DNA of 62,992 nt, counting the filler, from Kipferlia bialata (Eukaryota): NCBI GenBank assembly GCA_003568945.1. It is 4 parts of 4 records of this genome, joined end to end, with 100 filler letters (N's around TTAATTAATTAA, not from the genome) between each part and the next. Parts side by side here need not be neighbours in the genome. Positions count along the whole stretch, not along the records: positions 19,459 to 38,798 come from BDIP01000428.1; 3 more parts are not named here. The stretch is one strand, 5' to 3'. Shown here one piece after another: positions 15,178 to 61,007 of this stretch. Position numbers and translations under genes: made by a program. The notes beneath the pieces are model-generated. The model worked only from the letters and a program-made list of their open reading frames with translations, did not search any database and was not told the DNA's origin. Position 1 is the stretch's first letter. Every line of letters begins with the position of its first letter.

Positions 15178-16860
15178 CTACATCGTAAACACTCCAGAGC
15201 GGCTTAGAGACAGTGTAGCATCCTGACGTGAGGTATGAACAGTACCAATGATACTGTACCATTGTAACACACACACTGTCAGTAGTGGATGGCAAATTAT
15301 CAGTATCAATGTCAGCATCATATTGCTACACATACAGCAGCGTTCCATTACCTGGTACACATCTGCCCTGCCTCCCTGCCTCTTCTCTCCCTGCCTTGTC
15401 TCTCCCTCCCCCTCAGTGGTTATGTCTTCAACCTCACTCTTCTCTGCCAACAGGGGTGCCCTCACATCCTCAGGCAACTGTGTCTTCTCAACCTCGTATG
15501 AAAGCTTAGGTAAGTTAAAGTAGTAAAGGCTCAAGAACCATTGAATATACAGGTGTTGCTGGTATCAAATTGCATATGATTTGAGCTGGGAGCTAGGCAG
15601 CGTCACCTTGAGAAGCAGTGCGGGTAAGGTACAGTACACTGCTGTGGGTAGAATGGCACATAGCCACAGGACAGCTGTTCTGTCGAGGAAGCTGGCAATC
15701 ATAGCGGTGCCTAAGCATCAGTACACAGTGTACACACTTCAAGCCGTACAGTTTACAGAATACATATACATGTGCGACACTGTTTCTGTGGTATAGCGCT
15801 ATGCAGCGAATGACCGTTGAATGTTATGGCACACTCACCAAAGAGTCCATAGAAGATCATGGTGAACCCCAGGACATTGGCACTGGGTTAGACGTCGGAG
15901 AGAGATGAGATTCGAGTAGGAAAGGTTGGATCTAGCCAGCTGCAGACTCACCTCTTCAACCAAGTCTTGTGCCTAGAGTAGAGTCTGGGGTACTCCCGGC
16001 AGAAGTCCTCATCGAGCTGGTGTGAGAGACGACATGTTGTACCAGATAGCTGTACTCTCAATGTGGTATATCGTGTATGCTCAGAGCTTGAAACCATTGG
16101 GTGATGAGAGATGGATTATCACCATGTGTGTATGGTATATATACAATATGGACATACGCTCTGTGTCACTGCCATCATCAGTGACAACTGTACAGACTTG
16201 GTATATAGTGTAGTGTGACACATACCTAATGAATCATTATTAATGATGCCTATAATAACGGGTAGTATACTATATCACTACTCACGCTCTGTGTCACAGC
16301 CATCATCTGAGTCAGCAGCACAAACAGTGCATACAGGGTTGATGTGACAGCGGCGAGTGCAGTCCTGTCTCCATCCACTACCCCTCCCTGACCCCAGCCT
16401 AGGACTAGGTAGGGCAGGGTGTAGAGGCAGGCACAGAGGGAAAGGACAATGGCAGACTGAGTAGTGAGATATACATCAAGTGGGATCAGTATACATGAAC
16501 TATTGCACACAAATGTATAGTACATTATATAGTGACTATATATATATTGAGGAAGCTGACGTGGGCAGACTGAGAGGTCAGTTGGAGGAAGAGACACTCT
16601 CTACCCTACTGTGTTATCTGGCATGGTGTGGGTACATACCCTTCTGAGCTGCCTCGTGTCATTCCCTGCAGATGCACTGTACCCAATGTGGTACCTCCAC
16701 TTAGACTGTAGACGTGTTATGAACTCTCCAGCGGCCTAGGGGTCAGTGCGGTAAGCGTGACTGCCATACCACAAATGAATACTCCTCTATCAGTGATAGA
16801 GTCTATCACGCTACTCTACCATACCTTTGAGTCACTGCTGGAGTAGCTGTAGGAGGACAT
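15178..16860 (-). CDS. Multi-pass membrane protein of unknown function (about 8 exons, about 4 TM segments)
   Basis: ATG at 16860 (MSSYSYSSSDSK). In-frame exons include SAIVLSLCACLYTLPYLVLGW, ALAAVTSTLYALFVLLTQMM, NVLGFTMIFYGLFGTAMIASF and VLWLCAILPTAVYCTLPALLLK, then an acidic tail and TAG at 15178. Confidence 0.7.
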
Positions 16861-17210
16861 GGGTAGAAAGGGACGAATATGCTGGCTGGTAACCATCAGT
16901 GGTGCTCAACAGTTTCACCACTGTAGCCTATACCGTACACGTTTGACACCATCTATGTAACTGTAGATCCCAAACGACACTGTAACACACCACCTGTATC
17001 TATTCATTGCTTGTCAACTACTAATCAGGTTAATACTGTACTTATACATGGCAACTATCTGCAGTCTCTAAAGTAAACTATACGTTCCTTCACGAAGCTA
17101 ATGCTCTCTAACCGTTGGTACTACTGTGTAGTCAGAGCACATATGGAACACAGAGAACCCTACTATGATATACACTAGTGGAGGCTCCCTTTGCTAAGGA
17201 AACACCAGTC

Positions 17211-18141
17211 TCACACCATGTCTTCTTGGGTAACTGCCTCTCTGTCTCTCTCCTGGGTCTCAGCTGGAGTCTCTGTCTCTCCCTCTCCCTCGTCAGCCTC
17301 TGTCTGACCCCTTTCTTTTTTGCCAGTCTTGACAGGCACTCTGGCGAAGCCAAGGACGTAGCCTGGGTGAGTATAATAAGGGTGAAAGTAGGTATATCGG
17401 TTTGGATACATATTCTACCACTGTAGCAGCCGCACCTGTGAACATTGAGCTCATGAACACCAGGGCCATGATGGCACCGGCACCAACAAGCACGGTGGAG
17501 GCACCTGAAAAATTAGGGGTATATACATATATATATATATACTGAGAGAGGGAGACCCTGCGAGAGAGCATTCAGATAGGGAGATACTAACTGACCAAGT
17601 CATCGGGTATACATGTGGAACTGTACCTAGAGGTATACATATATATAGAGAGAGAATGAGGATCCAGGTGTCACCGTACCTAGCGGGAACAAGAACCCGG
17701 TTGCGATGGGACAATGTGTATATACATATATCATATATATATAGAGAGAGAGGGAGAGTACCTAGAGGGAACAGGAACCCAGTTGCCGCATAGGAGAGGG
17801 GCTCGAGACCCACCCAGCACATCATGAGGGCACCTGAGGGGTAAGATATAATATACTAATATATAGAGTTAATACAGTAGAGAGAGAGAGAGAGAGAGAC
17901 CCACCCAACACATCATGAGGGCATCAGTATACACTCAAATAATGACTGTTCCCTACCTCCCCTCCCCCCTCTCTCTCTCTACATAGGTACACTTATCAAT
18001 ATACATACACTCACCCATGACTGTGCCCATCCCCCCCTCCGGTGCATGTCCCTGGAAGAATGTCATGATGAGGGGCATAGAAGCACCATCGATCACGCCC
18101 TGAGCATAAGGTATCTGTATAGAGATAGATAGAGAGAGGTC

Positions 18142-18178
<37 letters not shown>

Positions 18179-18481
18179 TATGGTGAGGGGCATGGATGCT
18201 CTACACAACCCACCATGATGCCGGATGGCAGGATCATCTGACACACATATGGTATATGGGTATGTAATAACTATACGTATTACTGTATACATATGTATCA
18301 TATATACACTATGTATACACTCCATGTATATATATAAATGTATATATATATTAATTCTCCACTCACCATGATACCGGATGTCAGTATCATCTCCCACACA
18401 TATTGTATAGAGGTATGTAACAAGTATATGCTATACTCTGTATACATATGTATCATATATACACTCTGTATACACTCCATG

Positions 18482-18513
<32 letters not shown>

Positions 18514-18738
18514 CACTCACCATGATGCCGGATGTCAGGATCATCTCCCACACCAGGGGTGCCAGACCAAAGGCAATGAGACCCAGGCAGTAGGACAGGG
18601 TCATACTGGGAGTAAGCAAATAACATAGAGAGGAAGATATATATATATATATACATATAGGGAGAAAAAGAGAGATGCTATGAGACCCAGGCAGTAGGAC
18701 AGGGTCATTCTAGAGGTAAGGAGAGAGAGGTTACATAG

Positions 18739-18789
<51 letters not shown>

Positions 18790-19298
18790 ATGAGGCCCTG
18801 GGAGTAGGACAGGGTCATGCTGGGAGTGAGAGAGATACAAATGACAGAGGGAGGAAGATATATATATATAGACGGATATATATACATATACATCAGCATG
18901 CACCCACCCGATGACCAGTGCTATGATGCGTGAGTCCTTGACCCCCTCCCCAGAGACCATGGCCCATATGCCACCCACCATGGAGAACAGACCATAGGCA
19001 GATACCTACTGTAAGTAGTTAGAACATATACACAATATATATATGTGGTTATACACTGTATATCGAAACACACATATGGAGAACAGGCCATAGGCAGAGA
19101 CCTCGGATGAGACAATATGTGATATGTATGCATATATAGGATATGTGTTTTACAAAATGGAGTACATATACTGAATTGCATATATTGAACTCACCAGTCT
19201 ACCATAGTCAAGTGCGTCTCCTCCAATCTCCTTCTTGATCCTGTATGGCACACCCACAAAGAAGGGGCCGGAGAACACAAAGTTCTGGACGCACATGG
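17211..19298 (-). CDS. MFS-type transporter, C-terminal half (5' part beyond contig end)
   Basis: Spliced translation MCVQNFVFSGPFFVGVPYRIKKEIGGDALDYGRL-VSAYGLFSMVGGIWAMVSG...QGHAPEGGMGTVMGALMMCWVGLEPLSYAATGFL...GASTVLVGAGAIMALVF. About 6 TM helices with an MFS TM10-11 loop-like motif. Confidence 0.75.
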
Positions 19299-19613: not shown

Positions 19614-19644
<31 letters not shown>

Positions 19645-19944
19645 ACCCCTTTCCCTTTCGCTTATACTTATGTAGATATTCCCATTGTCAATCCACAGTG
19701 TGTACTCTCTCCCTGTCTCTATTCATCCTGAACTGTGCTTGTTGATATATACCCCCAGCTGTGCACCTGTCCAACCGATATCTCTCTCCCACTTCTTCCA
19801 TGAGACACACACGTATATGTATACATGTTTGTGTTTCTTAACCCCAGCTGTGCACCTGTCCATCCACAAGCACAGTGTACTATCTCTGTCTCTCTCTCTC
19901 TCTCTCTCTTAGTTCATATATGTATATATACCCTTAACCCCCAG

Positions 19945-20145
19945 CTGTGCACCTGTCCATCTACAAGCACAGTGTGTACTCTATCAGCCCACCCCTCCTG
20001 TCAGTGTCCCTGGCCAATGTCCCACTATGCACAGGTATATATACACACACACATAAGTATAGTGATATAGTTATTTGTATATGATATACTAATACTACTC
20101 CTGTCAGTATCACTGGCCAATGTCCCACTGTGCACAGGTATATAT

Positions 20146-20192
<47 letters not shown>

Positions 20193-21597
20193 GATGATAT
20201 AGATTCCGTATATGATATACCAATACGACTCCTGTCAGTGTCCCTGGCCAATGTCCCAGTGCACAGGTGTATAAGTGTATATATATATATACATAACGAT
20301 GCGCTGCAGAGCAGGATATTCAAGATGGATCATTTACTCGCAATGCACCCCCCCCCCCCATTCCACTTCCGCTGTAATGTCTTTATACATATTTGTATAC
20401 AATGAGGATTGCATTTCCGCTAATGTTATCTGACCCAACTGCTTCGTAAACTTTTAATTAGAATAATTCAAAGAAGCTAGATGAATGAGTATATATAGCA
20501 CAGTAATGCATACTCACTCAGGTGCCTGTGTGCGCATGGGTGGCGAGAGGTGCCTGGTACAGGAGGTGGTGCCAACCAACTCTACCCCTGCACTAAGCGC
20601 TTCTACCCCTCGTGTCCATGTTGTGTCCCTCTCCAGTGACACCCCCACTGACATTGTGGTGCATCCCTCTGAGGCACCGGTGTCAAGACCATGTGTGGTT
20701 AGAGTGCCTAGGGGTGAGAAGGTTTCTATAGGAACTAAGGGTAGTAAGGGGACTATGGGTACTATGTCCTATGTGGGTCCCCCCTCTCACTTGACTGCCC
20801 TGACTGAGTTACTCACAATGGGTGTCACTAGACCAGGGGAGGCTATAGATGCAGGTACCCCAAGAGCAGATGTGCATGAAGTATATACTAATCATTATAT
20901 ACTAATCATTATATAAGCATTCACCCCCAGGCGCTCTAGTCTATGGCCCCGATCGATGCATGAATTCGAATATTATTATATCATAATAGTACTCTATATA
21001 TATTCACTTCTAGGCGCCCTTGTGTATGGCCCCGAGGGTACAGGTCGCAAGACCCTCATCAAGTCAGCATGTGCAGAGTGTGGGTACAGTGTACATGAAG
21101 TCACACCAGCAGAGCTAGGAAGCAGCAGTGGTACGTATATATTGTGATGATGGAGATGTTCTTTTCTCTCTCTCCTTATTTTCTCTTCCTTTTATGTCAT
21201 TCTTCTCTTCGCATCTCTCCCCTCTCCCACCCTTTCTCTTATCCCTCAGGTCTTGGTGACGTTGAGGCCGCTGTTCTGGCAAAGGTGGGAATAATAGTGA
21301 TTGGGTGTTTATGTTATATATTATTTGTTTCCATACCTCCCAGTACATATTCAATGCACTGTTCGATAGTGACACCTCTGCCCCTCCCTCTCTACTATTT
21401 TGTGCGTATATCTACCCTCATCATCAGGTTAATAGTGTATGTGATGCAGCTGTCACTCCAACTGTCCTGTTGATCCATGACATCCACACCCTGTGTCCAT
21501 CTGAGGGGGCAAGGGGAGTAGGAGCCGTATCTGGTGTGCGCCTAACATCTGTATTGTGTCAGGTACGATATATTTAATATATATTCATACATACATC

Positions 21598-21629
<32 letters not shown>

Positions 21630-22718
21630 GAATTATACCCTGTGTCCCTCTGAGGGGGCAAGGGGGGTGGGGGCAGTGTCTGGTGTTCGCTTGACATCAG
21701 TTATATGCCAGGTATGAGATGACATTCATATATACGTATATACATGTATATATACATATGCAGTGTGTCCATTGGAGAGCAAGTGGGAGGTCGGGATTAT
21801 TGTTTGATATGTAGAGCTTCTATAGTAATTTTGTGTGTTTGTCCGTTTCCCTACTCTAGGCGCTGGACACTGTCAGGACCCGTTCCTCCTCAATCATGCA
21901 TATATATATATTTGTTTTATGTATTATGTCCATTTGTTGAGCTGTTATTAATGCTAGGCCTTGGACACTGTCCGTACCCGTTCCTCCTCCATCAGGGCCA
22001 AGACCCTTGAGGCAGGGGGCACAGTGGTACTCTCAGCTGCACCTGTCATTGTCATGGCTACAGCAGGTGTGTATACAATACATGTATATACTTATACATT
22101 GGAGTATATGTGTGTGGGACATCTTCATACTACATTTCATATGTATACTGGGATTGTTCTTGACCCTCACCCACAGGTGGAGAGACTGACGTGGCACAGG
22201 GGGTGTACAGGCCTGGAAGGTATATACATATTTAATATCATGTATATATTAGTGTAAATGTAGTAGATGTATACATATCTATGGGGTGAGACTGACGTGG
22301 CACAGGGGGTGTACAGGCCTGGAAGGTGAGGTCTTTCTCTCTGTGTACTTTCTTCTTCTCTCTCTACTAATTGCGATATCTTTACCCCTAGGCTAGGTGT
22401 GAGGATTGGCACTGCCAGCCCTTCAGTCATCGAGAGAGAGGCCATTCTGAGACAGGTATATATATAAACACTTACACATTGATACCGAAGACATTAAGGG
22501 AGAGAGATGGGTGATACTAGTCGTAGTGGCTATTCTGATCTGTGTTGAATGTGAGTGTGTCCGCAGTGTCCATTAATACTCTACTGTATCTAACTTAATG
22601 CACTACTATATATACTGTCCATTAATCACAGGTCTGGTCCAATGTGTCCAGTGACACAGATGCAGTCATCAGAGAGACAGCAGCTAGGTACCTGCCTTGA
22701 ACATATATATATATATAC

Positions 22719-22756
<38 letters not shown>

Positions 22757-23538
22757 TTTTCACGTAGTAATGTAGTAATATTCAATATATACGATATTAA
22801 TTCATACTGTGTATTCTGCATCCACCCTCTTAACACGCAGGACCTCTTTCTTCAGTGGGGCTGACCTAGTTGGCTTTGCATTATTGTGTATATGTACTGT
22901 ATATATATAGGGACTATCCTACCTCCCCTTATTTCAAGAGTATTCTAAATATTCTTATAGATAGGACATCCGGCTTCAGTGGGGCTGACCTTGTTGGCCT
23001 AGTGGCCTCATGCCCATCGGACCCCATGTCTGCACTGGGAAGAGTTAGGCCAAGTCTCATTAGACAGGTACTATACATTTGTATATTTAGGTATATGACT
23101 GTCAGACCGAGTGGGGTGAGTGAGACCATTATTGATTATTCGTGATATCATATACCCTACACTTATCTCAGGTTGTTCTGGTCGAGCCACAACAGGATGC
23201 ATACATACCAGGGTACGAGATACCTGTAGACACCGCCGCATATATATATATATATATATACGAACTATTTCATCATATGCTCTGTGTGTGTATGTATCAT
23301 ACCACTAACCACCAGCCCCTCCTATGACAGAGTCAGACAGCACCTGGAACTGCTGCTGGACCCTTCTGTGTTTGAGGTACCCTCTCTCTCTCTCTCTCTC
23401 TATATATATATGTATACTGACTCTAGGCCTTTGGATTTGAGGTAACTATCTATCTATATATTACTCATACATATGCTGCATGTGTATGCTTTATGCAGTA
23501 TTATCTCCTGGACCCATCTGTCTTTGAGGTATCCTTAC

Positions 23539-23570
<32 letters not shown>

Positions 23571-25587
23571 ATATATATATTTGTTTCTCTATTATTGAGG
23601 TATCCTACTCTCTCTCTATGTGTGTCTCTCTCTCAGTATATATAGTTCATTTATATACTGACTCTAGGCCTTTGGTATGGAACCTAGCAAGGGTGCCCTG
23701 CTCTATGGACCATCAGGCTGTGGCAAGACAGCACTGGTCAGACAACTCGCAAGGTATAGTATATATCAGTATATCAGTATATTTACATTTACACATGCTT
23801 ATATATATATAGTATGTATAGTATATGGGCCATCGGGCTGTGGCAAGACAGCACTGGTCAGACAACTGGCGAGGTATACATTCTATGCATGAGTATTAAT
23901 ACACCGAGTCGTTATCGTGTGTACTACTTGTATTGAGTACCAACGATCAATTTCCTAATATGAATGTCAGTTATCCTTAGCAGTAAACATTTGCTACACT
24001 CCTTAGTACTATCCCAATATCGGCGAGTACCAGGGCAAGTTCACCTTCTTCCTGGTGTATCTATATATATATATATATATACCTGCACATATACACATAT
24101 CTATGTATATGTATTCTTATATATCCTAATATCAGCGAGTACCAGGGCAAGGTCACCTTCTTCCTGGTGGATGGCCCATCCCTCTTCAGCCCATACTACG
24201 GAGAGACAGAGGCCGCACTCGCTCGGTATGTGATATATATACACGGATTAATAATGTACATCGACTTGTTTCAAGCCTGTATCTCACATTCAAAGGTCCC
24301 ATCTGTAGGGTATATATATTCGTTATTATATATAGTAGTAGTAGATTTATTTACCTACACCAGCGTCTTCTCCCGTGCCCGCTCTGTAGCCCCATCTGTT
24401 GTGTTCCTAGACAACGTGGATGCATTGGCACCAAGCAGGGACAAGGAGGGAGGGGGAGAGGCCAGTGGAAGGTAAACGTATATGGTATAGATAGTAAATA
24501 CGATATATCATGATATATATCAGTGGATGCCCTAGTATGCCCCCACCAGGGACAATGCGTGATTATTATTTACCCATGAGTGTATTTCTACTTATACCCT
24601 AACTCCCAGAGTGCTGTCTGGCCTCCTTGCCGAGATGGACGGTGCATACATATATATCTATGTACTATGAGTGTTATATATATATATATCTATACTTCAT
24701 ATATTGACCCCCAGGGTGCTGTCTGGCCTCCTTGCCGAGATGGACGGTGTGCAGGAGTCAGCCCCACTTGCAGTATTCGCAGGTAGGGATGTTTCTCTCT
24801 TTCAATACAATATACTATATGCTATATACTATATGTGTATATGGATATAATATATTTCATCCACTGGTAGTATTCGCAGGTGGTGTGTATCCTTAGCAGG
24901 ATTATATATGTCCCAAATAGTATATATACTATGTATATAGCATTGTAATCATTGTACTGTGTTTCTCTATTGCACATCCTGTTATATTGCTCTATGGTAG
25001 TATGTCTATAGGCATAGTTCTATACTATATACCCGTTCACTTCTCCTTACCCCAGCCACCAACCAGCCCTGGGCACTGGACTCAGCCCTGATCAGACCAG
25101 GTATGTAATACTATACATTAATATACAGATATATATGTAGTGTCCATGTAATTATACACTATTACTGCCCTGGGCACTGGACTCAGCTCTGATCAGACCA
25201 GGTGTGCATTACTATATATTCATATACATAGATATATGTAGTGTCCAAAATTTTTTTACTATTCCTGCCTTGGACACTGGACTCAGCACTGATCAGACCA
25301 GGTATGTATGACTATGTGTGTGTTTTCGACCTATGAATAATTTTGTGTGTATGAAATAGTAAGTAATATTTGTATTGATATATGTGTAATATGGGAGCTA
25401 TAGTCATCCCAATGTACTGTTTGGTGTATTACCCTGATCTGACACGATATATAAAGTGTCTCATAAGGTAATCAAAAATCACATTTAAACGCCTCTCCAT
25501 ATATTAATACGCTTTTTGAATACCTTACTCCAGGCAGACTGGACGATAGCATCATGGTGGGGGCACTCTCAGGGGACAGGTACATAG

Positions 25588-25634
<47 letters not shown>

Positions 25635-26207
25635 TACATATGTATACTTATCCATATATACATATGGTATATAAGTATCATGGTCGGGGCACTCTCAGGG
25701 GACAGGTACTTAGAAGTATATACATATATACATATATATATGTATATATATGTATACTTATACCTGATACATATACATATGATACTGAAGTATCATGGTG
25801 GGGGCACTCTCAGGGGACAGGTACCTTGATGCATATAGACTATATATATATACATACATGTATAGATATGATACTGAAGTGTCGTGGTGGGGGCACTCTC
25901 ATGGGACAGGCACAACGCCGCATACGCGGATTTGATTATTATGCACTCTACCTCGTACCCTTCTTTTCAATCCTACTGAAATATATATAATTGTAGCAGG
26001 CAGTAGAGATTATACAATATCCTCACTCCCAGGCTGGTGCAGGCTGTCTCTGCCGCCACTGAGTCAGTGACAATTAAGGGTGTAGAGAGAGAGGGTGTAG
26101 AGGGTGTTGATAGAGAGGAGCGTCTCGAGCGTATCACTGCCTCCCTGCGTACCAGTGGCATCCTCCACTCTGAGTGGCTGCCATCTGATGTGTGGCACAC
26201 AGGTACC

Positions 26208-26238
<31 letters not shown>

Positions 26239-26696
26239 GAGCCTTTTCTACCCCCAGCCAGACACGTTGCCAGGTCCCAGAAGAAGGACTATACCGATGC
26301 AGAGGGAGAGGGAGAGGGAGAGGGAGAGGGGGAGGGGGAGAGAGAGACTGTCACCACAGATACAGTTGTGTCTGCCCTGCTACAGGTATGCAGATATATA
26401 GTGTGTTAGCTTAGTTTTATATAGTAAATACTATATGTGTTACGTATGCACAATGTTTTTCAATTATAATAGATAGTAATTTAGTATTAAAGTATTTATT
26501 CAATTAATAATAATTATTTTATTTTATTCAATTAATAATAATTATTATCAATTATATGTCTCACTCCAGGCCTTAGTTTAATATATTGTATATTAGTTAT
26601 GGATATATATTATATCAATTATATGTCTCACTTCAGGCCTACCCCACTGTCAAGGGCGCTGCTGCCTGGACAGAGTACAAGAGATGGGGGGCATAG
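19945..26696 (+). CDS. Double-AAA+ ATPase of the CDC48 clan, most like SPATA5L1/AFG2B; 5'-partial, about 20 exons
   Basis: D1: [32 protein letters not shown]2: [79 protein letters not shown]. Stop TAG at 26694-26696. Confidence 0.85.
25056..25910 (+). repeat. Tandem exon-end + 5' splice-site repeats (3 units, then 4 units; period about 90-125 nt)
   Basis: CACTGGACTCAGCNCTGATCAGACCAG|GT ends at 25100, 25201 and 25301. GGGGCACTCTCAGGGGACAG|GT ends at 25579, 25705, 25820 and, degenerate, at 25909. Confidence 0.95.
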
Positions 26697-26940: not shown

Positions 26941-28260
26941 TTAGAGGATGACCACGGGGGCGTAGGCGTTGTACCACATGACAGAGGCGGGGGCCTGGAG
27001 TAAGATATATAAATCAATACAAGTACCAAAAGATACACATATAGATAATAGTGAAGAGAGGATGTATGTTTACCTGGTACTGGTATCTGGCCATGAGGAC
27101 CTCCTTGTTGCACTATATACATATACACTATATATATGTATATGTGTATATACAGACATATATACAGATATACATACATATACACTATATATATATATAT
27201 ATATATATAACATACCTGGTACTGGTATCTGGCCATGAGGTCCTCCTTGTTGCACACCACAACGTTGAAGGGTCTGGGGGTGAGTGAGAAATGAGAGGAA
27301 TTAGACAGTGAGGGAGAAAGAGAGAGAGAGATATGCCTCACCTGAAGGAGAGCTTTGCCAGGTTGAAGTAGCCAAGGCCGAAGGGGATTCCAATGATGGT
27401 GCAGCAGCAGATGGCACCCACAATGAAGAACATGATGGCTGGAATAAGGNNNNNNNNNGCAGCAGATGGCACCCACAATGAAGAACATGATGGCTGGAAT
27501 AAGGGTGTAGAGGTGGGGAGAGAGAGAGAAAGAAAGAGATGACTCCTATCATGTGGATTGAAGGTGAATCACGGTATATACACTACACTCACCCATCCAC
27601 CACCCGATGAAGATCATCCAGAAGACGTTCATGCAGGCAGCACATCCACTCCTCTCATAGGGGGACTGGGGCCTAGGGGTTAGGCATATATATAGAGAGG
27701 GAGAGAGAGCGAAATACTGAGAGTTCTAAGGGGACTTGGGGGGTGGGGGGAAGAGAGACTATACATACCTGTAAAGGGCCTTGCCGAAGGGGAATGCAGC
27801 GAATCCAGCCACCCTGAGGAGACCCACGCCGATGGGGGCACCAATGATGGAGATGCAGCAGCTAGGGTGAATGTATATATATATAGAGAGAGAGAGAGAG
27901 AGAAACAGAGAGAGATGGGGGCACCGATGATGGAGATGCAGCAGCTAGAGAGTGAGAGGGTAAGAGGAATGAAAGACAAAGAGAGTGCTTCAACCTGAGG
28001 GTCACATTGAGTAGGGGACGCCACACACACTAGCTACCATATAACGACCCACGCAACCACACACTAAACGCGCTCCCCAAACTACAAATGATGCAAGTAT
28101 AGCAACAATACGGCCGCTTTCACAAACTGACAAGAGAGAAAAGACCATAAATAGCTCTTAACCAGACGTACAGGATACCGACAATGCCATAGGTCAGGCA
28201 CAGGATCTCTCCTCCGAGGATGAACCACAGGATGTTCAAGAATATAGCACAGCCGTCCAT
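26941..28260 (-). CDS. YccF-domain (inner-membrane component, two repeats) protein, multi-exon
   Basis: Repeat 1: MDGCAIFLNILWFILGGEILCLTYGIVGIL-CISIIGAPIGVGLLRVAGFAAFPFG. Repeat 2: MNVFWMIFIG...GAICCCTIIGIPFGLGYFNLAKLSFRPF. Both fit the N(I/V)xW..GG...TIIGIP.G......L.PFG consensus. Confidence 0.88.
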
Positions 28261-28623
28261 TTTATGCTGTTGTTGGTGAAGCGATGGTCGAGTTCATCCC
28301 ACTGATCTGTATCATCAGTTTGAGAATTGAATTTCGAAAATGCACTTTCTTTATTTCGAAATTGGAAAACACGGTCACGTAATCTTATGTTACCATTTCT
28401 TACATGCGACCAATGGCTATACACGTGAAACACCACACACGCGTTCCGATCGAACCCGCTATAGCCCCTGTAGTGCAATAGCAGTGGACGTAACCGATAG
28501 TGGATAACCTACACCCTCATTCGACGGTGTTTGACAAATCTCGAGATCGGTGAGGGACAGACTGTTTACCTTCCCTGTCTAAGAAGCTTAGAGGGTTATT
28601 CCATCCTTCTGTGAGTGACAGAG
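28261..28623. promoter_or_regulatory. Putative bidirectional promoter between the YccF-like and RING genes
   Basis: 363-nt head-to-head interval with no microsatellites. It is visibly CpG-richer than the introns and contains CCAAT (about 28411) and CACGTG (about 28422). Confidence 0.5.
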
Positions 28624-28991
28624 ATGTCTGACTCTGATGTCCTTGCTGACACAGTCGATGTGACAGGTGCAGAGAGAGAGAGAGAGGTTGAGAGTGAGAG
28701 GGGTGTTAGCGAGAGTGAGACTTCACAGTCAGTGGAACCAGTGAGTGAAACAGGCAATCATGGAGAGGAAGGAGTCGAGACCGATGGAAAGAGAGATGCT
28801 GTGGAGGAGGGAGAGGGCGAGGGCGAGGGCGAGGTTGTTGTGGAAACCCTGGCTGACATTGATGCCGAGATGGACAGGGAGAGAGAGAAGAAGGGGGAGA
28901 GAGAGAGGGTGGAGAGTGCCATCGAGTGCCCCGTATGTCTGTGCACACCCACCAAGCCAATAGTGCTCAAGTGTGGGCACCTGATGTAAGT

Positions 28992-29024
<33 letters not shown>

Positions 29025-30915
29025 CACCTCTCTGCTATTGTCCTTTAGCCCAATTGAGTGAATGGTATGGTAGAGATCTTGCTGGCTGTTCTATCTCCTT
29101 CTCTCCCCATCTCATTTCAGGTGCTATAACTGCCTTCAGGGTACTCTCACTTCCCCTCTTCATATTGTATTCTCTCTCTTTCTCTCTCCCTCTATATCTT
29201 ATTCTCAGGTGCTATGACTGTCTCCAAGACTGGTGGGCAACACAGACTGCTAACCAGGTACAGTATCTATACACGTCCCTTCCTCTCCCGTGTCAATATC
29301 CCCTGTTGATTCGTTCTTTCTCTTTCTGACTTCTATTCTCTCTCTCTTACTCCCACACCCTTATATGTTGTGTGCCCCCTGTTCTCTCTCCCCCTTATAC
29401 CAGTGCCCCCTCTGCAGGGCTGTGCTGGACCCAGAGTCAGATGTCATACCAGTGTATACAGGCATGTATTATAGCATTACGTATACTATATGGATATGTT
29501 GTGTAGTCACATGGTCTTCGTCACTTAATACCATGTGTAAGTAATTCTAATGGATCATTGTTTGCAAATCGAGCACCCTTATCCAACCCCCAGGTGGTGC
29601 CTCAGCAGAGGTACCGGCCCAGTTCTCAGATGAGCTCAGGTATATAATCAATATATTTATATATATATATATGTATATATGGACGTGATCTATTTCAAGT
29701 CATTTGTATTTGTTGCTCTCCTGTATCAATATATTGTCTACTGATATGCAATGTGACTAATTAGTATCCTCGCACTATAGTGTCAATTGAAGTATATATA
29801 TACCACATGTTTAGACACTCACCCTTCAGGCAGAGGCGCCAACTATATTCATGTATATTGTCCAATGAATATATGTGTATCATGTATATTTACTTACACT
29901 CCAGGCAGCGGCGCCAGAGAGACCTGGACAGACGCATGAGGACCAATGGAAGGAACAACAACCAGAGGATTAGGTAATGGTAACTGGGGTATACACTGAG
30001 AGAGTATATTATAGAGTGTTAGTATTAAGGTGATTGAATTGGATACCTGAGGACCAACGGCAGGAACAATAACCAGAGGATTAGGTATTACTTATAGTAG
30101 AAATAGAGTAGACTATTCATATCTTCCTTGTGTGACTCTCACTGTCAGGATGATGGCCAACGGGGCCATGTTCGGATTGGGAGGTATGTTGTGTATACAT
30201 ACATAGATTCTTACAATCATCAATCATATATGAGAAAATGTAGGGTATATATGTAGGGTATGAATATGGACAATCAGAGTATATGTAGTCAGTACCGAAA
30301 TACCCTGTGTTAATGATATTCCCTTTCAACCCTCTCTTCCCCCTCACCCCAGGTGCCGGCTTCTCTCGTTATTACTCTGTAGGTTCTTCTCTCTCAACTT
30401 ATATGTGTGGTTGCAGTATTTGTCCTATTGATGCCTCACCCCAGGTGCAGGGTTCTCTCTCTCATTCGGTGCTGGTGGTGGGGGATTCCAGGTACGCAGA
30501 GTATTGTATTAATTTAGTATGCTGCGGCCCCTGATTACTGCGATGGTATCTATACTGATAGCCTACGTTCGCAGTTAAACAATGTATATTGTGCTGACTT
30601 TCAGGTCAGACGTCACCAGACTGGCATAGGGGGTCTTGGTCAGGTGAGAAATGGACTCAAATATACTCCTATGTAACATTAATGATACTCAGTATCGTTA
30701 CTATTAGCTAAACTGTGACTTTAGTTAGTGTATTTGACCGTTAGATGATCGGTGGCATGGGTCAGCCTCAGGGTGCCAGGGAGCAAGGGGGGCTAGGAGG
30801 AGAACAGGACGAGGAGGCCTTCAGAAGAGAGGTACTATACATATATATACATATATATTAATATATGCCTTTAGAGAGAGAGAGGGGACGAGGAGGCATT
30901 CAGAAGAGAGGTACT

Positions 30916-30962
<47 letters not shown>

Positions 30963-31627
30963 TTAAGAGAGAGAGAGAGAGGACGACGAGGCATTCAGAA
31001 TAGATATTCAATATGTACATATATTTTTATGTCTATTTATTCTTAAGGGAGAGAGAGGGGACGAGGAGACATTCAGAAGAGAGGTACTGTATCCTACATA
31101 CTTGTGGTTCATCCTTATTGTATGTGTGTAATACTATATAGAAGATAATAATATTATGTTTGAAGACGTTGTGTGTCTCTATTCCTCTGATTCTGTAGGT
31201 CAGACAGCGCCAGAGACGCACCATGCTAGTGATCCTGGCCAATATTTTATTGGTTGTCCTCCTGTCCCTGGCCTCGTACCTGTTGCCATCAGACGGGGCA
31301 GTGCTAGGTTAGAATACATACTGGCTCTCATATATAGTATCCTTATAGTATAGAATACATAATCTAGAACAGCAAGATGCATTATGAATACTGTGACAAT
31401 CTAACTCTCATGCACTGCTCAGCAATATAATATATGCATTTTGTATCTAGTTATGATGTTTTACCCCCAGGCCCTGCTCAGCAAGAGGGTGGAAGGACTA
31501 TATGATAGTAATATGCATTGTTAATTCAGTTATTTATGTGACTATCTCACCCTCAGGCCCTGCTCAGCAAGAGGGTGGAAGGAGACGGGTGAAGGTGTCG
31601 CCATTTGGGTTCGGGATAGTGTTCTAG
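28624..31627 (+). CDS. C3HC4 RING E3 ubiquitin ligase, RNF5/RNF185/RMA-like, with a C-terminal TM anchor
   Basis: ECPVCLCTPTKPIVLKCGHLM-CYDCLQDWW...-CPLCRAVLDPESDVIPVYTG. Hydrophobic tail MLVILANILLVVLLSLASYLL. The last exon is uncertain. Confidence 0.85.
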
Positions 31628-34534: not shown

Positions 34535-35476
34535 CTAAAGATCGAACAGCCCAACCACCCCGGGTACAGGGTTTGCGTAGTCTGCGTCCCAGACACCTGT
34601 GTGTTAGTGGAGATATATATATATTAATATATTGGGTAAGAGACACTAGGATACAGGTATGCATATATGAAGGTATGTATATCTATGAGCAGAAAGCTTG
34701 AGATATAGCAGTCCCAGACACATGTAAGAAAGATATACAGTCTTATGTGTGGATGTATAATCATATATATAGGAAGATATTCAAGATTTCTTTTTCAGAC
34801 CCCTCTGTCGAGACATTCACCGAGAGAGAGAGCGAGATTACCTGGACTTCCCACCAACGCCTGGTATCCATAACGATTGCTATCCACGGTAAGAGAAGTC
34901 CCTGGGGTAAGCAGGGTGTATGTGCATGTGTGTATGTATGATAGAGAGAGAGAAAGAGGATGTCCCTGTGGGAAGCCTGGTGTTGATCAGTGGTGTGTAT
35001 ACATACCCAGATTGGTTTCAACCCTCTTCACTGAAGAGTCTTCAGCTGTCGTCTCTCTCTCTCTTTATATATATATTATACATATTATATATTGATAGGA
35101 CGCTCACCCAGGTCTGGGTCCTCTCCACGCTATAGGTACCTCTCTCTCCCTCTCCCCCCCCCATCTATATATACATGTGTGTCTTCCTTGGAAGATCCGC
35201 ACTCACCTAGGTATGTGTCCTCTCCACCCTCTGTGTATCCACTCTCTCTCTCTCTCTCTCTCTCTGCTAATATATAGGACACTCACGCAGATATGGGTCG
35301 TATCCACCCTCTAGGTACCCTCTCGTTCTCTTACTCTCTCTCTCTGTTCATATATGCAGGGTATGTTTACCTAGGTATGTGTCCTCTCCACCCTCTGTAT
35401 ATCCGTTGCAGATGAAGTGGCCTACGGCATCGTCAGGTCTCCAGTCTCTGTTGTACGAGTACAACCTGGGGTGGTC

Positions 35477-35509
<33 letters not shown>

Positions 35510-36761
35510 CTGTAGGAGTACAGCATGGGGTCAGTCGTGTCTACTTGATTGAGGGAGAGAGAGAGATACTTGGGGGTGGAATACAGTCTGAGGTTGGGTT
35601 ACTGATTGATACATATAGATATACATATAGATTGGAGCATACATCGAGACACAGTTCTAGTCATTATGTACTGCATGTTGTAACCTGGATTGCGAGAGAG
35701 AGAGACAGAGAGATACCTGGAGTGGCTCGAGAGAAAGAGAGAGAAGAAGAGCCACTCTTCTATATCTGATACTGCACCCTAACCTTGAGTGGTTGGATGT
35801 GTATGAGGCCCCTATGACCAGGGCATTACCATCCCCAGTCACGCCAAGGGAGGACCCAAAGCCAAAGTCCTTGCATTATTAGTAATTAGCAGTTGTTAGT
35901 AGTATCCTAGTACAGTAGTGTATATCCTGACATGCAAGTAAGGACCCAAAGCCAAAGTCCGAGAGATCAGCCCATATACATATATTAACAGTAATCTGAA
36001 GCTCTGATAGGCCTACTAAATGCACTCTGACCAGCTGTCATAAGCCATTTCTGACCAACAACACCACGCGTCTTCCAACCCCCACCTACATCTACCTCGA
36101 TGGATGTGCTGCCCTGGCAACAGCCTGCGTCCTTCCCCACCTAACTCGCGTATCTACTCCTCACTTAACTCGCGTATATATGTATATAGTTCGCGTTTAT
36201 ACCTCGATGGACGTGCTGCCCTGGATGGTGTCTACCAGTGTGTAGAAACCCGAGCTCTTCAAGAACACCTGCACCTTGCCTGCTCCAGTCTGATTGATTA
36301 GAGGATTGATTATGAGATATACTACTCGATCGACTAAGCTTAATTGAATGAATAAGTTCAAAATTATTTAGATTAAGTGCCTTGTGACTGTTGGATGAGG
36401 GACATCCCATTGCCACCAGGGTACCATCGTCACTGGAAGAGAGGTTGCACGAGTCGGATGGGCAGCTCACTGATGTAAGTATAGTTCCATGTTACTAGGT
36501 TCTATTGACCCTGACGGACAAAGACATTCTCACACTACACCCTTATTGCATGGTGTACTAGGTTAACCAGGAGGGGAGAAAGAGGGAGAGAAAGAGAGAA
36601 AGATAGAGGTCGAAGGAGTCGGAGGGGCAGCTCACTGACGTAAGGGGATAGGGGTATACTATCCGAGAAAGAGAGTACATACTTCTGACTTGGTCCTCGA
36701 ACGTCCAGATGCCGTCCTCCTGATACTGGAACACATCGATGACGTGACCACTGACGCTGAG

Positions 36762-36809
<48 letters not shown>

Positions 36810-37168
36810 ACATCGATAATGTGACCACTGACGCTGAGGTCAGAACAAGTATAATACCAGTATAATACCAGTATAATACCAGTGAATATACAATATACTA
36901 TATACTATATACAAACATGTATTGAGTATATGTACATATTGTGGCCCATAACACTAACGTGAAAGGGGGAGGGAACACTACCTATAGTATAGAGTCCATA
37001 TAGTTGTGAATATAGTGTGCATTATGTGTATATGTAGTTCTCAATGTATAGAGGTGCAGCATATAGATTCTATATGATATAGAATCATTGCACTCACTCT
37101 GAGCCTGAGAAGAATATGGTCTTGCCATTGGCCGAGACAGCGACGTTGGACCCGTACTCTAATCGGTT

Positions 37169-37199
<31 letters not shown>

Positions 37200-37878
37200 G
37201 TTGGACCCGTACTCTAGACAGTGAGATAGGGAGAGAGAGAGAGAGCGAGAGGAGCGAGAGAGACAGCGACGTTGGACCCGTACTCTAATCGGTTAGAGAG
37301 AGAGAGAGGGAGAGAGAGAGAGAGAGAGGTTGGACCCGTACTCTAATCGGAAAGAGAGAGAGAGAGAGAGAGTAGGAGCCTGTGAGAGGTGGACAAGGGA
37401 GGATAGACAGGTTGCCATAGGGCAATACTTATCATCTATATAGTAGTATACTACAACTACTCTCTATACAGAAGTACACACACTAACTAATCACACGTAC
37501 TGTGGCCTGGCCATGTGTCATGACGTGTATACTCATAGGATATAACACAATAATATACTATACTATAGTGCATTATAGTATTACATGTTGTTGTCTAGTC
37601 TAACAACACGTACTGTGGCCTGGCCATCTGTCCAGATACATAGAGAGAGTGACCTCGTGCTCTATTCCAGTGGCCTCATCCAGCCTGGAGGCAATGACAA
37701 TAAGGGTGTAGAGAGAGAGAGAGAAAGAGAGAGTCACCCAGCCTGGAGGCAGAGAGAAAGAGAGAGAGGGCGAGTGAGAGAGAGTAGGAGAGTACCTGTA
37801 CACATAGACACTTCCGTGGTCCAGTGTATCCTGGTAGGTGTCGGTAGGGCACCCGATAACCATGACACCACCTGGTGA

Positions 37879-37922
<44 letters not shown>

Positions 37923-37985
37923 GGGCACCCGATAACCATGACACCACCTGGGCGTCAGTATATACATATAAACAGTGGTAGATGA

Positions 37986-38027
<42 letters not shown>

Positions 38028-38093
38028 GGGCCATCATGATCAAGAAACTGCAGGTATACAGTATATATATATATATATGAATATATGTATATA

Positions 38094-38126
<33 letters not shown>

Positions 38127-38531
38127 GACATGGCTATCATGATCAAGAAGCTGCAGGTATACACATAGAGTATATTCACACATGTATACGTATGACACTT
38201 TCCTCACTCTCTCCGTTTTCCACCCTACCCGATAGTAGATGAGGAAGAGAGAGAGAGAGAGAGAGGTAGGGCACCCGATGGGCACCTGACATGGGGTGTG
38301 TGTATAGTATAGTAGTGAGAAGGCGTAGTGTATGTGGGTAAGTCTATGTATACCCCCCATACTACAGTGTATGTATGTCTAAGTCTACCTCCCATGGCGA
38401 CCGATGAGGGTGTGTAAATAGTACATAGTATAAATAGATGAGGGTGTGATAGAGTATATAGTATACACAGTATACATACCTCCCATGGCCAGCGATGTGA
38501 CATCGTTGGCTGGTCCCTCGAAGGAGTCAAC
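34535..38531 (-). CDS. Beta-propeller protein with FG-GAP/integrin-alpha-like repeats; 5'-partial
   Basis: Exons read TSLAMGGGVMVIGCP..DHGSVYVY, EYGSNVAVSANGKTIFFSG, SSDDGTLVAMGCPSS..GKVQVF, FGFGSSLGVTGDGNALVIGASY and SLTVDSNRYGYQALVGSPG. Stop TAG at 34537-34535. Confidence 0.75.
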
Positions 38532-38798
38532 CTGGAGGTGAGATGATGGGTAATGGTTTAATACATTATTATTTAATTTCTAATCAATTTCTACTAGTAA
38601 TACAATATTAATTCTCACCTCCAACAATTATGTGTTATATATATGTCTCTAAAGTATACTAACCCATACTCTACCTGCACCCACTCAGTCATGTCCCCCT
38701 ATCAGTGATATATACTAGTAACAAAGGTATATAGTGTAGTATGGTATAGTAGTAGCTAGTATAGTAGTAGCTAGTATAGTAGTAGCTAGTATAGTAGT

Positions 38799-38898
38799 NN
38801 NNNNNNNNNNNNNNNNNNNNNNNNNNNNNNNNNNNNNNNNNNTTAATTAATTAANNNNNNNNNNNNNNNNNNNNNNNNNNNNNNNNNNNNNNNNNNNN
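38799..38898. other. Artificial contig spacer
   Basis: 44 N + TTAATTAATTAA (38843-38854) + 44 N. Confidence 0.98.
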
Positions 38899-38946
<48 letters not shown>

Positions 38947-39083
38947 GGAGAGAAAGAGAGAGAGAGAAGGGGGTGACTGCAAAACATCAGTAACCACGGT
39001 GACACAGGTCGGTAACGGAGAGATATGTAGTTATACATACAGGACAGACAGTGCAAGTAGTGTGACATAGTTACAGTTGATAC

Positions 39084-39167
39084 CTGGTACTGAGCGAATG
39101 CCTCCTGGGTGAGAGTGGGATACACACTCAGCAGGCAGCTGAACATGCTCGGCAGAGCCTGCGACAT
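39084..39167 (-). CDS. Probable first exon of a gene truncated at contig start
   Basis: ATG at 39167 reads MSQALPSMFSCLLSVYPTLTQEAFAQYQ, then cag|gtatca and an intron-like CT/poly-C tract. Confidence 0.45.
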
Positions 39168-39390
39168 GCGAGGTTATGCTATGGTACTCTGGTCACACCA
39201 CACACAGATCGGTGAGAAAGGCCGAGGTCGGTACTGGTGAGACTTATTGGTAAAACTGTCCGTTTGTGCTAAAACTGTGAATACTCAAAGTGGCCTTCTG
39301 CAAGAGAAATTGAGTATCGCTTCTTCCCAAGAGAGACCAAGCTGTGTCCCAGCGCCCTCCACACAGACAGCCTCTCTCTACTTAGAGGCC

Positions 39391-39921
39391 ATGGATTTCG
39401 TCTCTGATCTAACACGGCTGTATCGGTTGAAGAGAGGAGCATGTGACTCCGAATTCTCAGTTTCACAGGTATACTAACACACTCGCCCAGTGTTTGTATC
39501 ATGTGTATGTGTTGTGTCATCTCCTCTTCAGATCTCTTGTTCACTACTTATATATAGTATATATAGGCTTACTGTCCAGGTCAAGCTGTCATCCGTTCCT
39601 TCGTTGCAGGATATCGCCATGGAGGTATGGAGGGTTCATGTTGTGTCTTGAACCTGTGTGTATACACACCTGACACCATTCAGTCCCTGAATTCTATCGT
39701 ATGTCTCTCTGACTCATTTTAGGCTGTGGCCAAGGAGTTTTGCCAGACTCTCTCCTTCGCCAATATCCCAGAGGAGCTCCAGGAGGTATGGAGTATTCCT
39801 CTATCACAACGGGTCTCCGATATGTCCAAATAACCCCAGCCTCTTGCTGCCTTTGTGCCTCTGGACACACCCCTGGCCGATATAGTCCCAGTGCTTGCCA
39901 GTGACGTGTACGTTTGTGCAT

Positions 39922-39962
<41 letters not shown>

Positions 39963-42734
39963 TATAGATGGTCATTAATTGTCTTCCCTTTCTCATCTAG
40001 GTACTGGCGGCGAAGACTGGTGAATGACTTTGGTACTGTTGCTAGGAGTCTAGGCCAGAGGGAGCCAGGCATCCCATACAGGTGAGAGTATTATTCATTT
40101 ATGAATAGACTATCACCACTGTTTTGGCACTCTCATTGCTTGTTGTTAATCTCAGGCAAATATACCTAGAGACCCACCTTCAATCCTTCCTAGAGGGACT
40201 GCTGCTGCCAACTGGACTGCCAGAGGCACAGGTATAGATAGTATATATATACTGCATAAGTATATATACTCTATATATATAATACTTTAATACTTCATAC
40301 TATTTATATTGATACGTGCACTGCCAAAGGCACAGGTAGCTATAGTATTATTTATATACTGTATAAGTACATTGATCAATGACTATTTATAATGACAACG
40401 GGACTGCCAGAGGCACAGATAGACCCTATATATAAGCTCTATCAAATATATTTATATATATATATGTATATATGTGTGTACAACTGGACTAGCAGAGGTA
40501 CAGTTAGATACTATTTATACTATATATCTTCGTGGAGGGAAAATACGTTGCTCTTCGTATACATATATATATATTCAGTCCCTATGTCCACCCTGACCTC
40601 CAGTCTGCCTCAGCGGATGAGCCCTTCAGTGACGCTGGCCTCAAGGGGGTCCTTGAGATATGTGCCCCCCACTGTAAGGTGTTAAGGTTCAGGTACCCAT
40701 CTCTTGAGTATGCTATAGTATATTCCCATACCATCGGATGCTAGATGATAACTTGCTGCTTACTAACATAGGCACTTCCGCTCCCACCTGTGTCTCTATG
40801 AGCTTCTGAAGCGTCTCCCGCATGTGGATACCGTCTTTGCCTCCTTCTCCTCGGGGTGTCTGGACTATGCCAGGTTCATAGGCCAGAACAAGGCATCCTA
40901 CACACCCTCGCTAGGTATACCAAATATTCTTGTCTTTAGTATGATACTGATGCCAGGTGTGCTTGAGCCTGCCTCTGGGTAACCATGTTTTATATGTATA
41001 CTATATTATACATTATTATATATTATTGATGCCAGGTGTGCTTGAGCCTGCCACTGTGTCATTTATTAGATGTATATTTAGTACTTATACTTATTAAGCA
41101 CTTATACTAGGTGTGCTTGAGCCTGCCTCTGGGGTGGACCGACAGGCAGAGGCAGACATGATACTGCTCACAGCCCTGGCAGGTGGGGTGGGCGCTGAGC
41201 AGGAGGAGGAGGGAGGGGAGGACCCCGAGATGGACCCTGACAACCTGGACAGCCTGCCCCACATGGCCACAGAGGGGTACAAGGTGTATATGTATATATA
41301 TTAATATAGGTACAAGGTGCATAGGCTATATATATATAGTTATATAAGTATATATATGTGTAAATGGAGCATATGCTGCCCCACATGGCCACAGAGGGGT
41401 ACAAGGTATATATACACACACATATATATAGGGTATAAGGTGTATAGGCTGAGGGCCGAGCCCAACTCTCTCTCTGTCTGTCTCTCTGTCTGTCTGCCCC
41501 ACATGGCCACAGAGGGGTACAAGGTATATGTATGTATGTGTTCATACCTATACTATATACATCTTCATGTGTATATCACTCTAATAGTCCGAGGGGCACA
41601 AGGTGACTAGGAAGGGGGACATATATATATGTATATATGAATATCACTCTAACTGTAGGTGCCCAGGCTGCAGGCAGAGCCCAACGAGGCCCTGACCTGT
41701 GGCATGCTGCCTAGAGATGCCATCAGTCTGGGCAGGTGGGAGGATATACACTTTATAACGTCTTCCTTGCTCTGTCCTTGATACTGATACACCCCCCTTC
41801 TGACCCCAGGGCCCTTGCCATCCCCGGTGGCATTGTCTCCTCTGTGTCTCTGCGGTCCAGTGAGGCTGGGCCTGAGCAGTGCCGCGCTGTGTGTCTGGGT
41901 GCCATGCAGAGTGAGGCCATACGGCACATAGACATGGGGTACAACCACATAGGTCAGTGTCACCTTGTATATATATATATACAACCTAGTTCTCACTGTC
42001 TCACTCTAGGTGACACCGGTGCCTCCCTCATTGCCGAGACTGTCCCCCTTGCCAAGCTGGAGGGGGTAGGGCTGGCAGGCAATGGTGTGTCTGTGGCTGG
42101 ATGCAAGGTGCTGGCCAAGGTGGCTGGGAAGAAGGGAACCACGCTCTCAACCATCGACCTCTCCTCCAATCCCATAGGTATGTGTATCGGGTAGTATTGT
42201 TTCATTGTTATATGCAAGTAAGTCCAAGTGCCGGTCCTTCTTACTCTCAGGCACCGAGGGCTTCGAGGCCCTTGTGACTGGATGCCTCCGGGCTGTCCTC
42301 AAGCACAGTCAGCGGGGCCTATCCACTCTGTGTGTGTCCTCGTGCCAGATCGAGGGGGTGCAGGGCCTGGCTGCCCTGTGCCGTCTGTTGACACATGGCA
42401 AGGTCACCCGGCTCGAGATGGACGGCAACCCCCTAGTGGCCCAGGAGAGTGAGAGTGCAGAGGCCACTAGGCATATCTGCGAGGCCATAGAGGCATCCTC
42501 CCAGCACTGCAGACTGACAGTGTCCAAGTGCGGGTTGACATCATCTGACCTCACCCTCATCGAGCAGTGCATCTTCTCCCACAGTCTAGCACTCCAGGCA
42601 CAGGCACAGGTATAGTATATACTATATATGTATAGTATTCATCCCTTGTATACACAGTATATCTGATTACACAGGCAGAGGCAGATGCCAAGGCCCAGGC
42701 CCAGGAGGAGGAGGCAAGGCAGGTAGAGGAGTGA
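39391..42734 (+). CDS. DRC5: Dynein regulatory complex subunit 5 (TCTE1)-like RNI-type LRR protein
   Basis: PSLQDIAME, TPLADIVPVL..YWRRR, PYRQIYLETHLQSFLE, then LRRs IRHIDMGYNHIGDTGA, LAGNGVSVAGCKVLA and LSTIDLSSNPIGTEG. The order matches TCTE1/DRC5 as I recall it. Start exon uncertain. Confidence 0.75.
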
Positions 42735-52494: not shown

Positions 52495-52536
<42 letters not shown>

Positions 52537-56600: not shown

Positions 56601-56633
<33 letters not shown>

Positions 56634-57146
56634 CTATATCTATCTATCTATATATATATATAAAAATACATATGTCATAATGTCTATACCTCACATGCTG
56701 TACTGTCACCACTGGCCCTCTGTGGCATGATGTGAAGGAGATATCAAGGCGGGGACACAAGTCTTTGGCCTGGTGTAAGGGTGAAACACCATATATATAT
56801 AATGAAAAACATGTATAAGGGATATGTGAAGGAGATGTCAAGACGGGGACAGAGATCCTTGGCCTAAGAGTGAGATAAGTATGAATATGTATTCAGTGAG
56901 ATAGTATGAATATGTATTGTGTATATTGTATATAGTGGGATCAATATATGTGTGGCATGATGTGAAGGAGATATCAAGACGGGGGACACAAGTCTCTGGC
57001 CTAAAGGTGGAAAAGAGAATACAAAATCCAGAAAACATAGTGAACACAATGAAACATGCATAGGGCACGATAGAGAGAGAAGGGGGATATTAGAGAGACC
57101 AGAGAACAGAGAGTGAACACTGGGGAGAATTACTAGAGGCTGAGTG

Positions 57147-60972: not shown

Positions 60973-61007
<35 letters not shown>

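Follow-up and report, generated by a model that had tools for sequence, protein, structure and literature searches.

Introduction

Templated insertions and tandem duplications that arise from aborted SDSA and end joining are, like products of unequal crossing-over, rare, and they mostly draw on the sister chromatid. In intron gain by tandem genomic duplication, a short duplication carrying splice signals leaves one copy intronic; the unit described there is exonic, contains an AG/GT proto-splice site and sets the size of the intron gained (PMC2891723). In tandem exon duplication with mutually exclusive splicing, adjacent copies differ mainly at silent positions, and the exons described in the accessible parts of the reports are whole, bear both splice sites and are used in mRNA (PMC9013439, PMC6071210). 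In the hypervariable Schizophyllum commune, with parents 14% apart, crossovers concentrate in exons; the accessible part of that report deals with crossover positions and not with duplicated exon ends in introns (PMC4209137). The published account of Kipferlia bialata gives 124,912 GT-AG introns and takes two k-mer peaks as a sign of diploidy; none of the terms "duplicat", "microsatellite" and "allele" occurs in its main text (PMC5874029). Metamonads are reported, in the portion available, to lack canonical NHEJ and to rely on homologous recombination (PMC8516963); the accessible text of PMC6679479 contains nothing on duplications.

Here we analyse a window of 62,992 nt of K. bialata DNA (the whole stretch under study) in which partial copies of exon ends, hereafter echoes, lie inside introns. 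As in the intron-gain system, a short tandem duplication with splice signals leaves one copy in an intron. Unlike there, the duplicated unit straddles an existing junction, comprising an exon end and 45-135 nt of intron; the intron is merely lengthened, what remains of it being of normal size (137 vs 113 nt), and the intronic copy is conserved at the protein level. Echoes resemble mutually exclusive exons in that adjacent copies differ mainly silently, but they are partial, have one splice site and are skipped where a spliced contig covers them. The low-complexity junctions and the mechanism proposed below are shared with the repair events named at the outset; in contrast to these, echo formation would fill half of the introns, with material from strongly diverged homologs. 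With S. commune the likeness would lie in exons being the sole pairing-competent islands between diverged homologs. The ingredients of echo formation are known, and the structure itself was not found described: the open-access literature (main texts without supplements) yielded no account of protein-conserved partial exon copies filling introns. Amino-acid conservation is unexpected in unspliced intronic DNA.

Results

A 25-codon copy of an exon end in the following intron

The last 75 nt of an exon in an AAA ATPase gene recur further downstream in the intron (Table 1). Direct alignment of 21637-21711 with 21488-21562 reveals differences at 14 of 75 nt, twelve at third, two at first and none at second codon positions, leaving a single L>I change over 25 codons (the copy ends in TSVICQ). 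This exactly reproduces the count of the first-pass annotation, from which the analysis started. Jukes-Cantor dS is about 1.03 and dN about 0.03. The GT directly 3' of the copy, at 21712, is intact, and an AG at 21629-21630, following (TA)11, precedes a stretch of 81 nt (21631-21711) open in phase 0/0; the reading frame that the annotation had proposed behind the (TA)nG is present as described. The copy itself begins mid-exon, and the 7 nt that join it to the (TA)11 run occur in neither copy.

Taken alone, the case departs from neutral decay of one copy with P of about 0.004; seen as the top-ranking case among 56 exon ends, it is modest only, with about 0.2 such cases expected by chance. The first-pass annotation had presented it as the strongest single case. 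Within the set of 81 echoes it has the greatest length and is joint highest in number of differences; it forms the extreme tail of a general feature.

Table 1. Positions along the window of the focal exon, its copy, the host gene and the echoes of the nine gene models.
Feature	Position	Strand	Basis
Host gene: two-domain AAA ATPase, AFG2/Drg1-like, 21 modelled exons	19945..26696	+	Open GT-AG chain, Pfam, PDB match, spliced length
Functional 45-codon exon in phase 0/0, ending in the first copy (75 nt)	21428..21562	+	Joint 21284>21428 in the spliced contig, which spans the exon with 0 other letters
Spacer: used donor GT, TA-rich intron start, (TA)11 at 21608-21629, 7-nt junction	21563..21636	+	Sequence
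Candidate 81-nt exon of the first-pass annotation, unsupported	21631..21711	+	No C-tract or YTNAC; score 4.2; contig leaves on G
Focal echo, intronic copy of the exon end, GT at 21712	21637..21711	+	Alignment, dS/dN
Acceptor-side echo of the next exon, same intron as the focal echo; same peptide, silent changes including CGT/AGG	21860..21896	+	Echo scan
Next exon, starts with G	21958..22066	+	Gene model (predicted junction)
Two acceptor echoes of exon 19945	19759..19878	+	One DNA contig (record 4), echo scan
Two donor echoes of exon 19945-20034, the nearest with 3 silent changes, the farther with 0; skipped in splicing	20098..20258	+	Scan, spliced length
Acceptor echo differing from exon 21014 by 3 silent changes; in cis, skipped	20931..20952	+	Record 7, joint 20854>21014
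Twelve more host-gene echoes: 22285, 22841, 23505, 23824, 24024, 24611, 24861, 25167, 25264, 25674, 25789, 25882	22285..25909	+	Scan
8 echoes, genes M1 and M2	16158..19101	-	Scan
Echoes in M3 (minus) and P2 (plus, RING protein)	27074..31497	.	Scan
Echoes in M4 (minus) and P3 (plus); neutral-looking, pN/pS 0.53 and 1.16	35110..41523	.	Scan
Gene M5: 23 echo rows, pN/pS 0.06	51291..57000	-	Scan
Gene M5: Ser AGC/TCA switch common to three echoes	54309-54511	-	Scan
Gene M6: 7 echoes, 10/10 differences at third positions	59872..62825	-	Scan

Echoes occupy half of the modelled introns

Self-comparison of the window directly revealed near-tandem repeats throughout. Nine gene models were obtained by manual phase chaining together with a small predictor for which the AAA gene served as training set, echo mismatches not being used; the host gene alone (1/9 models) was checked against the spliced contig. 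None of the nine contains an internal stop, two GC donors being assumed at 29461 (+) and 36381 (-), which the in-frame models appear to need. The predictor took several echoes for exons. The introns are short, GT-AG and rich in TA/GA microsatellites. Every intron adjoining an exon was scanned for donor-side echoes (downstream copies of the exon 3' end with GT) and acceptor-side echoes (upstream copies of AG with the exon start). The scan, confined to the 62,992-nt window, returned 83 rows, two of which were dropped before counting, one being a 100% duplicate beside an N gap and the other probably a chance match. The 81 echoes kept lie in 42 of the 85 modelled introns and in all nine genes. Matches of equal score between exons and unrelated introns occurred in 1 of 331 pairs.

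The median echo is 30 nt long and covers 37% of its exon; the exon part is about 30 nt irrespective of exon length (rho -0.02). The spacer between an exon and its nearest echo measures 45-135 nt and is never below 45 nt. This clustering of lengths and the minimum spacer perhaps reflect a splicing constraint. GT or AG is kept intact in 70/81 echoes. Introns with echoes have a median length of 337 nt vs 113 nt for the others, and of 137 nt once the duplicated part is removed. Intron flanks of single echoes are no more alike than controls (0.425 vs 0.395, n=33, in a comparison of 66 echoes excluding the focal one). Outer echo junctions are microsatellite-like in 43% of cases vs 23% of background windows, as expected of homolog-templated duplication joined at low complexity; the windows overlap, so that the P of 2e-6 is optimistic.

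Differences between echoes and exons are mainly silent

Over all 81 echoes the differences at codon positions 1, 2 and 3 number 40, 27 and 134 (over 827, 828 and 824 sites), giving a directly observed pN/pS of 0.126; the window-wide ratio of 0.13 becomes 0.136 without the focal case. With one echo per exon end the counts are 21/14/96, compared with 36/34/61 expected if the echo decays neutrally while the exon accepts silent changes only. None of 3000 neutral simulations reached 96 third-position differences; the differences thus arose under protein selection. The bias remains when the focal case is removed, both in these counts (19/14/84) and in a frame-free test in which distances between mismatches, modulo 3, are distributed 153/94/84. 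Acceptor-side echoes alone give a pN/pS of 0.13. Twelve silent switches involve first or second position changes, among them AGC/TCA, CGT/AGG and AGA/CGC. Across echoes pS shows no correlation with pN (rho 0.12, n=45) and is overdispersed (chi2 92, df 55), and 13/81 echoes do not differ from their exon. Echoes that have lost GT/AG show a pN/pS of 0.41, and two genes look neutral, P3 (8 differences) and M4 (Table 1). Altogether, these data establish the echo pattern as real, non-random and general in this window.

Three further causes were considered and rejected. Compositional drift toward AT is incompatible with the balanced GC direction of the changes (60 vs 61). A detection effect does not account for the bias: neutral decay simulated under the same score rule yields a third-position share of 43-44% at all five ages, compared with 67% observed. 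A faster silent rate in the functional copy would have to be about 8-fold, and the farthest echoes are closer to the functional copy. A simulation in which the echo derives from another allele (branch depth about 0.1, post-capture decay 0.03), which is a fit and not a test, gives 69% third-position changes and rates of 0.036/0.028/0.14, the observed values being 67% and 0.048/0.033/0.163.

Nearest and farthest copies probably have different histories

In 17 arrays pN/pS rises, as read directly from the copies, from 0.09 in the nearest to 0.44 in the farthest echo. Counted at third vs first plus second positions, private changes are 6:1 for functional copies, 14:8 for nearest echoes and 6:14 for farthest echoes, the last being neutral per site (4.1% vs 4.7%). 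The near-vs-far contrast is marginal (P 0.052 and Fisher P 0.037), and one array includes an echo split by an indel into two rows. A polarity test returned raw counts of 24/731 and 71/368 for inner and 36/762 and 56/375 for outer echoes, which point in the predicted direction. Since the farthest copy changes evenly over codon positions, intronic DNA shows no intrinsic excess of mutation at third positions. The nearest copy has a silent history of its own, which argues that it was once a working exon end, parallel to the present one; such a parallel history calls for a second functional lineage, either an allele or a homeolog.

The host gene and the splicing of its echoes

When the host gene is compared with AFG2/Drg1 (SPATA5) and p97/Cdc48, its second AAA domain appears AFG2-like by sequence, and the first is degenerate. 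Pfam AAA was found on three exons, and the best PDB match, to the exon of the second domain, is AFG2 (E 1.8e-12). A protein search with the focal exon gave 0 matches among 24 candidates. The 5' exons are absent from the window, where a 13-base probe from the 381 nt of the spliced contig upstream of 19942 is unmatched; they probably lie within the gap at 19359-19458, a joint between window parts.

Contigs derived from reads of two runs of one sample, X1 and X2, were compared with positions 19460-21718. Repeats amounting to 571 letters were skipped, among them the focal echo and the (TA)n junction, and the joint with the next exon lies beyond this coverage. X1, possibly the source of the window, contains 0.97 of 163 words from 20900-22500. 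Neither run is recorded as RNA; that X2 is RNA is a guess, and three GT..AG joints in one of its contigs show spliced sequence. This contig (record 8, 2225 nt) joins 20854>21014, 21130>21250 and 21284>21428. It matches the first copy of the focal pair with 0 other letters and is not chimeric. Its span from 19942 to 21563 amounts to 714 nt, exactly the length of the model without any echo (714); the echoes at 20098, 20229 and 20931 are therefore skipped and the exon-proximal sites used.

Among DNA contigs, record 7 (20341-21570, depth 399) holds the echo at 20931 in cis with its exon. It matches the window up to 21570 and continues for 54 further letters, ending in or near the TA run. Record 4 (depth 307) contains the echoes at 19759 and 19848 together. 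No second, allelic contig at 85% identity or above was present in X1 over the exons between 20341 and 21570, where variant letters were absent too, contigs being able to drop variants; no donor allele was seen in X1 at that level, nor any further copy over the 333-nt exon in the read contigs. Of the pattern matches obtained in two metagenome scans for relatives, 0/92 and 0/341 were confirmed.

Discussion

Origin of the echoes

We consider the focal copy to be a piece of a diverged, once-functional allele that was captured by misaligned recombination between homologs and is now spliced past, with a probability of roughly 0.55. The first-pass annotation had offered two interpretations, and the relic of a deeply diverged allele is the one that fits the data of the window, namely the pN/pS of 0.13, the near/far gradient and the lack of correlation between pS and pN. 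Intronic TA/GA microsatellites would break or stall replication. With introns of the homologs too diverged to pair, repair would prime in the conserved neighbouring exon; copying would then cross the homolog's intron, overshoot by about 30 nt into its next exon and be joined to the broken end, so that failed annealing would leave the homolog's exon end inside the intron. Unequal crossing-over between an existing echo and the exon of the homolog could give the same product. Because the captured piece would have worked as an exon end until its capture, it should differ from the resident exon at silent sites, position-blind changes accumulating only afterwards. New captures would land beside the exon and push older copies outward. 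We propose that preference of the spliceosome for the exon-proximal site makes the insertion tolerable; spacers below about 45 nt would be purged by selection.

Allele capture would involve alleles with a typical dS of about 0.3, and of about 1 for the focal one. To our knowledge, a silent diversity of about 0.2-0.3, together with one allele at dS of about 1, lies at or above the highest known values. Also against it, genes P3 and M4 look neutral and the echo length of about 30 nt does not follow from the model. We put forward only tentatively, at less than even odds, the wider proposition that this lineage routinely repairs intronic microsatellite breaks from a strongly diverged homolog, such that half of its introns preserve remnants of earlier alleles, population silent diversity is at least 0.2-0.3, and thousands of intact decoy splice sites are ignored through strict exon-proximal choice.

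Alternative explanations

The second interpretation in the first-pass annotation, an alternative or additional 81-nt exon born from a microsatellite-derived AG and kept under protein selection, could draw on the open phase-0/0 stretch with its AG and GT and on a pN/pS far below 1. It is nevertheless very improbable. The spliced contig runs one base beyond exon 21428-21562, and this base is G, the first base of the next modelled exon, whereas the candidate starts with A. A weak hint in the same direction comes from the computed end of this contig, which only skipping of the focal echo places at 26298, 3 nt short of an (AGAGGG)n array. The context of the candidate acceptor sets it apart from the modelled ones: the (TA)nG lacks any C in -12..-3, where all 85 modelled acceptors have at least one and most have 3-6, and it lacks YTNAC, YTNAY being found in 80/85. 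The gene-model score is 4.2 vs 14-64 for host-gene exons. Of the 28 donor echoes that have an AG close by, 11 keep the frame, which is chance (P 0.55) and not the excess that exonization would produce, and acceptor-side echoes share the same silent bias. Inclusion would presumably double 25 residues right after the first Walker-B-like motif. Nor is the copy a whole exon with its own acceptor and donor, as a mutually exclusive exon would be, 75 of the 135 nt being copied. The one spliced contig over the exon uses the first copy; rare isoforms are invisible in contigs, and the stretch of the focal echo was skipped as repeat. Plain tandem duplication with neutral decay, the bias being due to chance or detection, is the account to which we give least credence: it suits the farthest echoes, those devoid of GT/AG and genes P3 and M4, but for the whole set it is rejected by the simulated third-position counts, by a detection share never above 44% and by the frame-free distances.

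Selection might instead have acted indirectly within one lineage, if echoes were copied from the sister chromatid and the nearest often replaced the exon end by single-strand annealing or conversion, amino-acid changes being purged at that stage. This reading, which we regard as unlikely, fits the low pN of nearest and the neutrality of farthest echoes, as well as conserved exon parts beside unrecognisable intron flanks, and it requires no second allele in the sample. Exchange frequent enough, however, would erase silent differences and delete units, nearest echoes carry 14 private silent changes against 6 in functional copies and 6 in farthest echoes, and the spliced contig (0 other letters) is not chimeric. 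Less likely again are donors in paralogs or homeologs (an old hybrid or allopolyploid subgenome), captured by the same mechanism. Values of dS up to about 1 and AGC/TCA switches would suit species-level divergence, and a donor less than 85% identical would have escaped the contig comparison; yet the wide variation of pS and the 13 identical echoes are unlike one fixed subgenome distance, and the 333-nt exon has no copy at 85% or above. An assembly artefact in which two haplotypes were joined in tandem at (TA)n is more doubtful still. The DNA contig does end in or near the TA run, leaving the focal echo beyond coverage, and overlaps of this type do occur in the assembly, as two 100%-identical duplicates beside N gaps demonstrate. 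Against this, the echoes at 20931, 19759 and 19848 stand in cis within deep contigs from X1, itself possibly the source of the window and containing nearly all words of the region; the focal echo starts mid-exon after a novel junction, where an allele would continue into exon sequence, and no allelic contig covers the upstream exons.

Implications

If echoes are captured alleles, as allele capture holds, a single protist genome would measure population diversity without population sampling, and it would hold evidence of recombination between diverged homologs, through sex or mitotic exchange. Echoes also supply many natural decoy sites, donors as well as acceptors, for the study of splice-site choice in short-intron genomes, and gene predictors mistake them for exons.

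Other features of the window

The duplicates at 27404-27504 and 54674-54768, 100% identical and flanking short N gaps, are contig overlaps that were left unmerged; unlike the echoes, they are a true artefact of assembly. A 12-base palindromic spacer lies between N runs at 19359-19458, 38799-38898 and 58235-58334, the joints of the window parts. At 60495-60898 (-), three successive exons encode near-identical peptides and have both splice sites; they were modelled as exons and may be whole-exon duplications or echoes. An eIF5/eIF2B-domain exon at 58654-59062 (-; Pfam E 5e-26) has nearest relatives at most 51% identical, which indicates a divergent lineage. Two intronless ORFs were noted. That at 48161-50077 (+) has no Pfam match; by its ESM Atlas features it agrees at 0.98 with eukaryotic protein-kinase-like clusters, in which 12% of the members carry Pkinase. 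The other, of 779 aa at 12089-14428 (+), carries DUF285/BspA leucine-rich repeats (Pfam E 2e-190); its best relatives are metagenomic or bacterial (29-53%), and it is possibly of bacterial origin.
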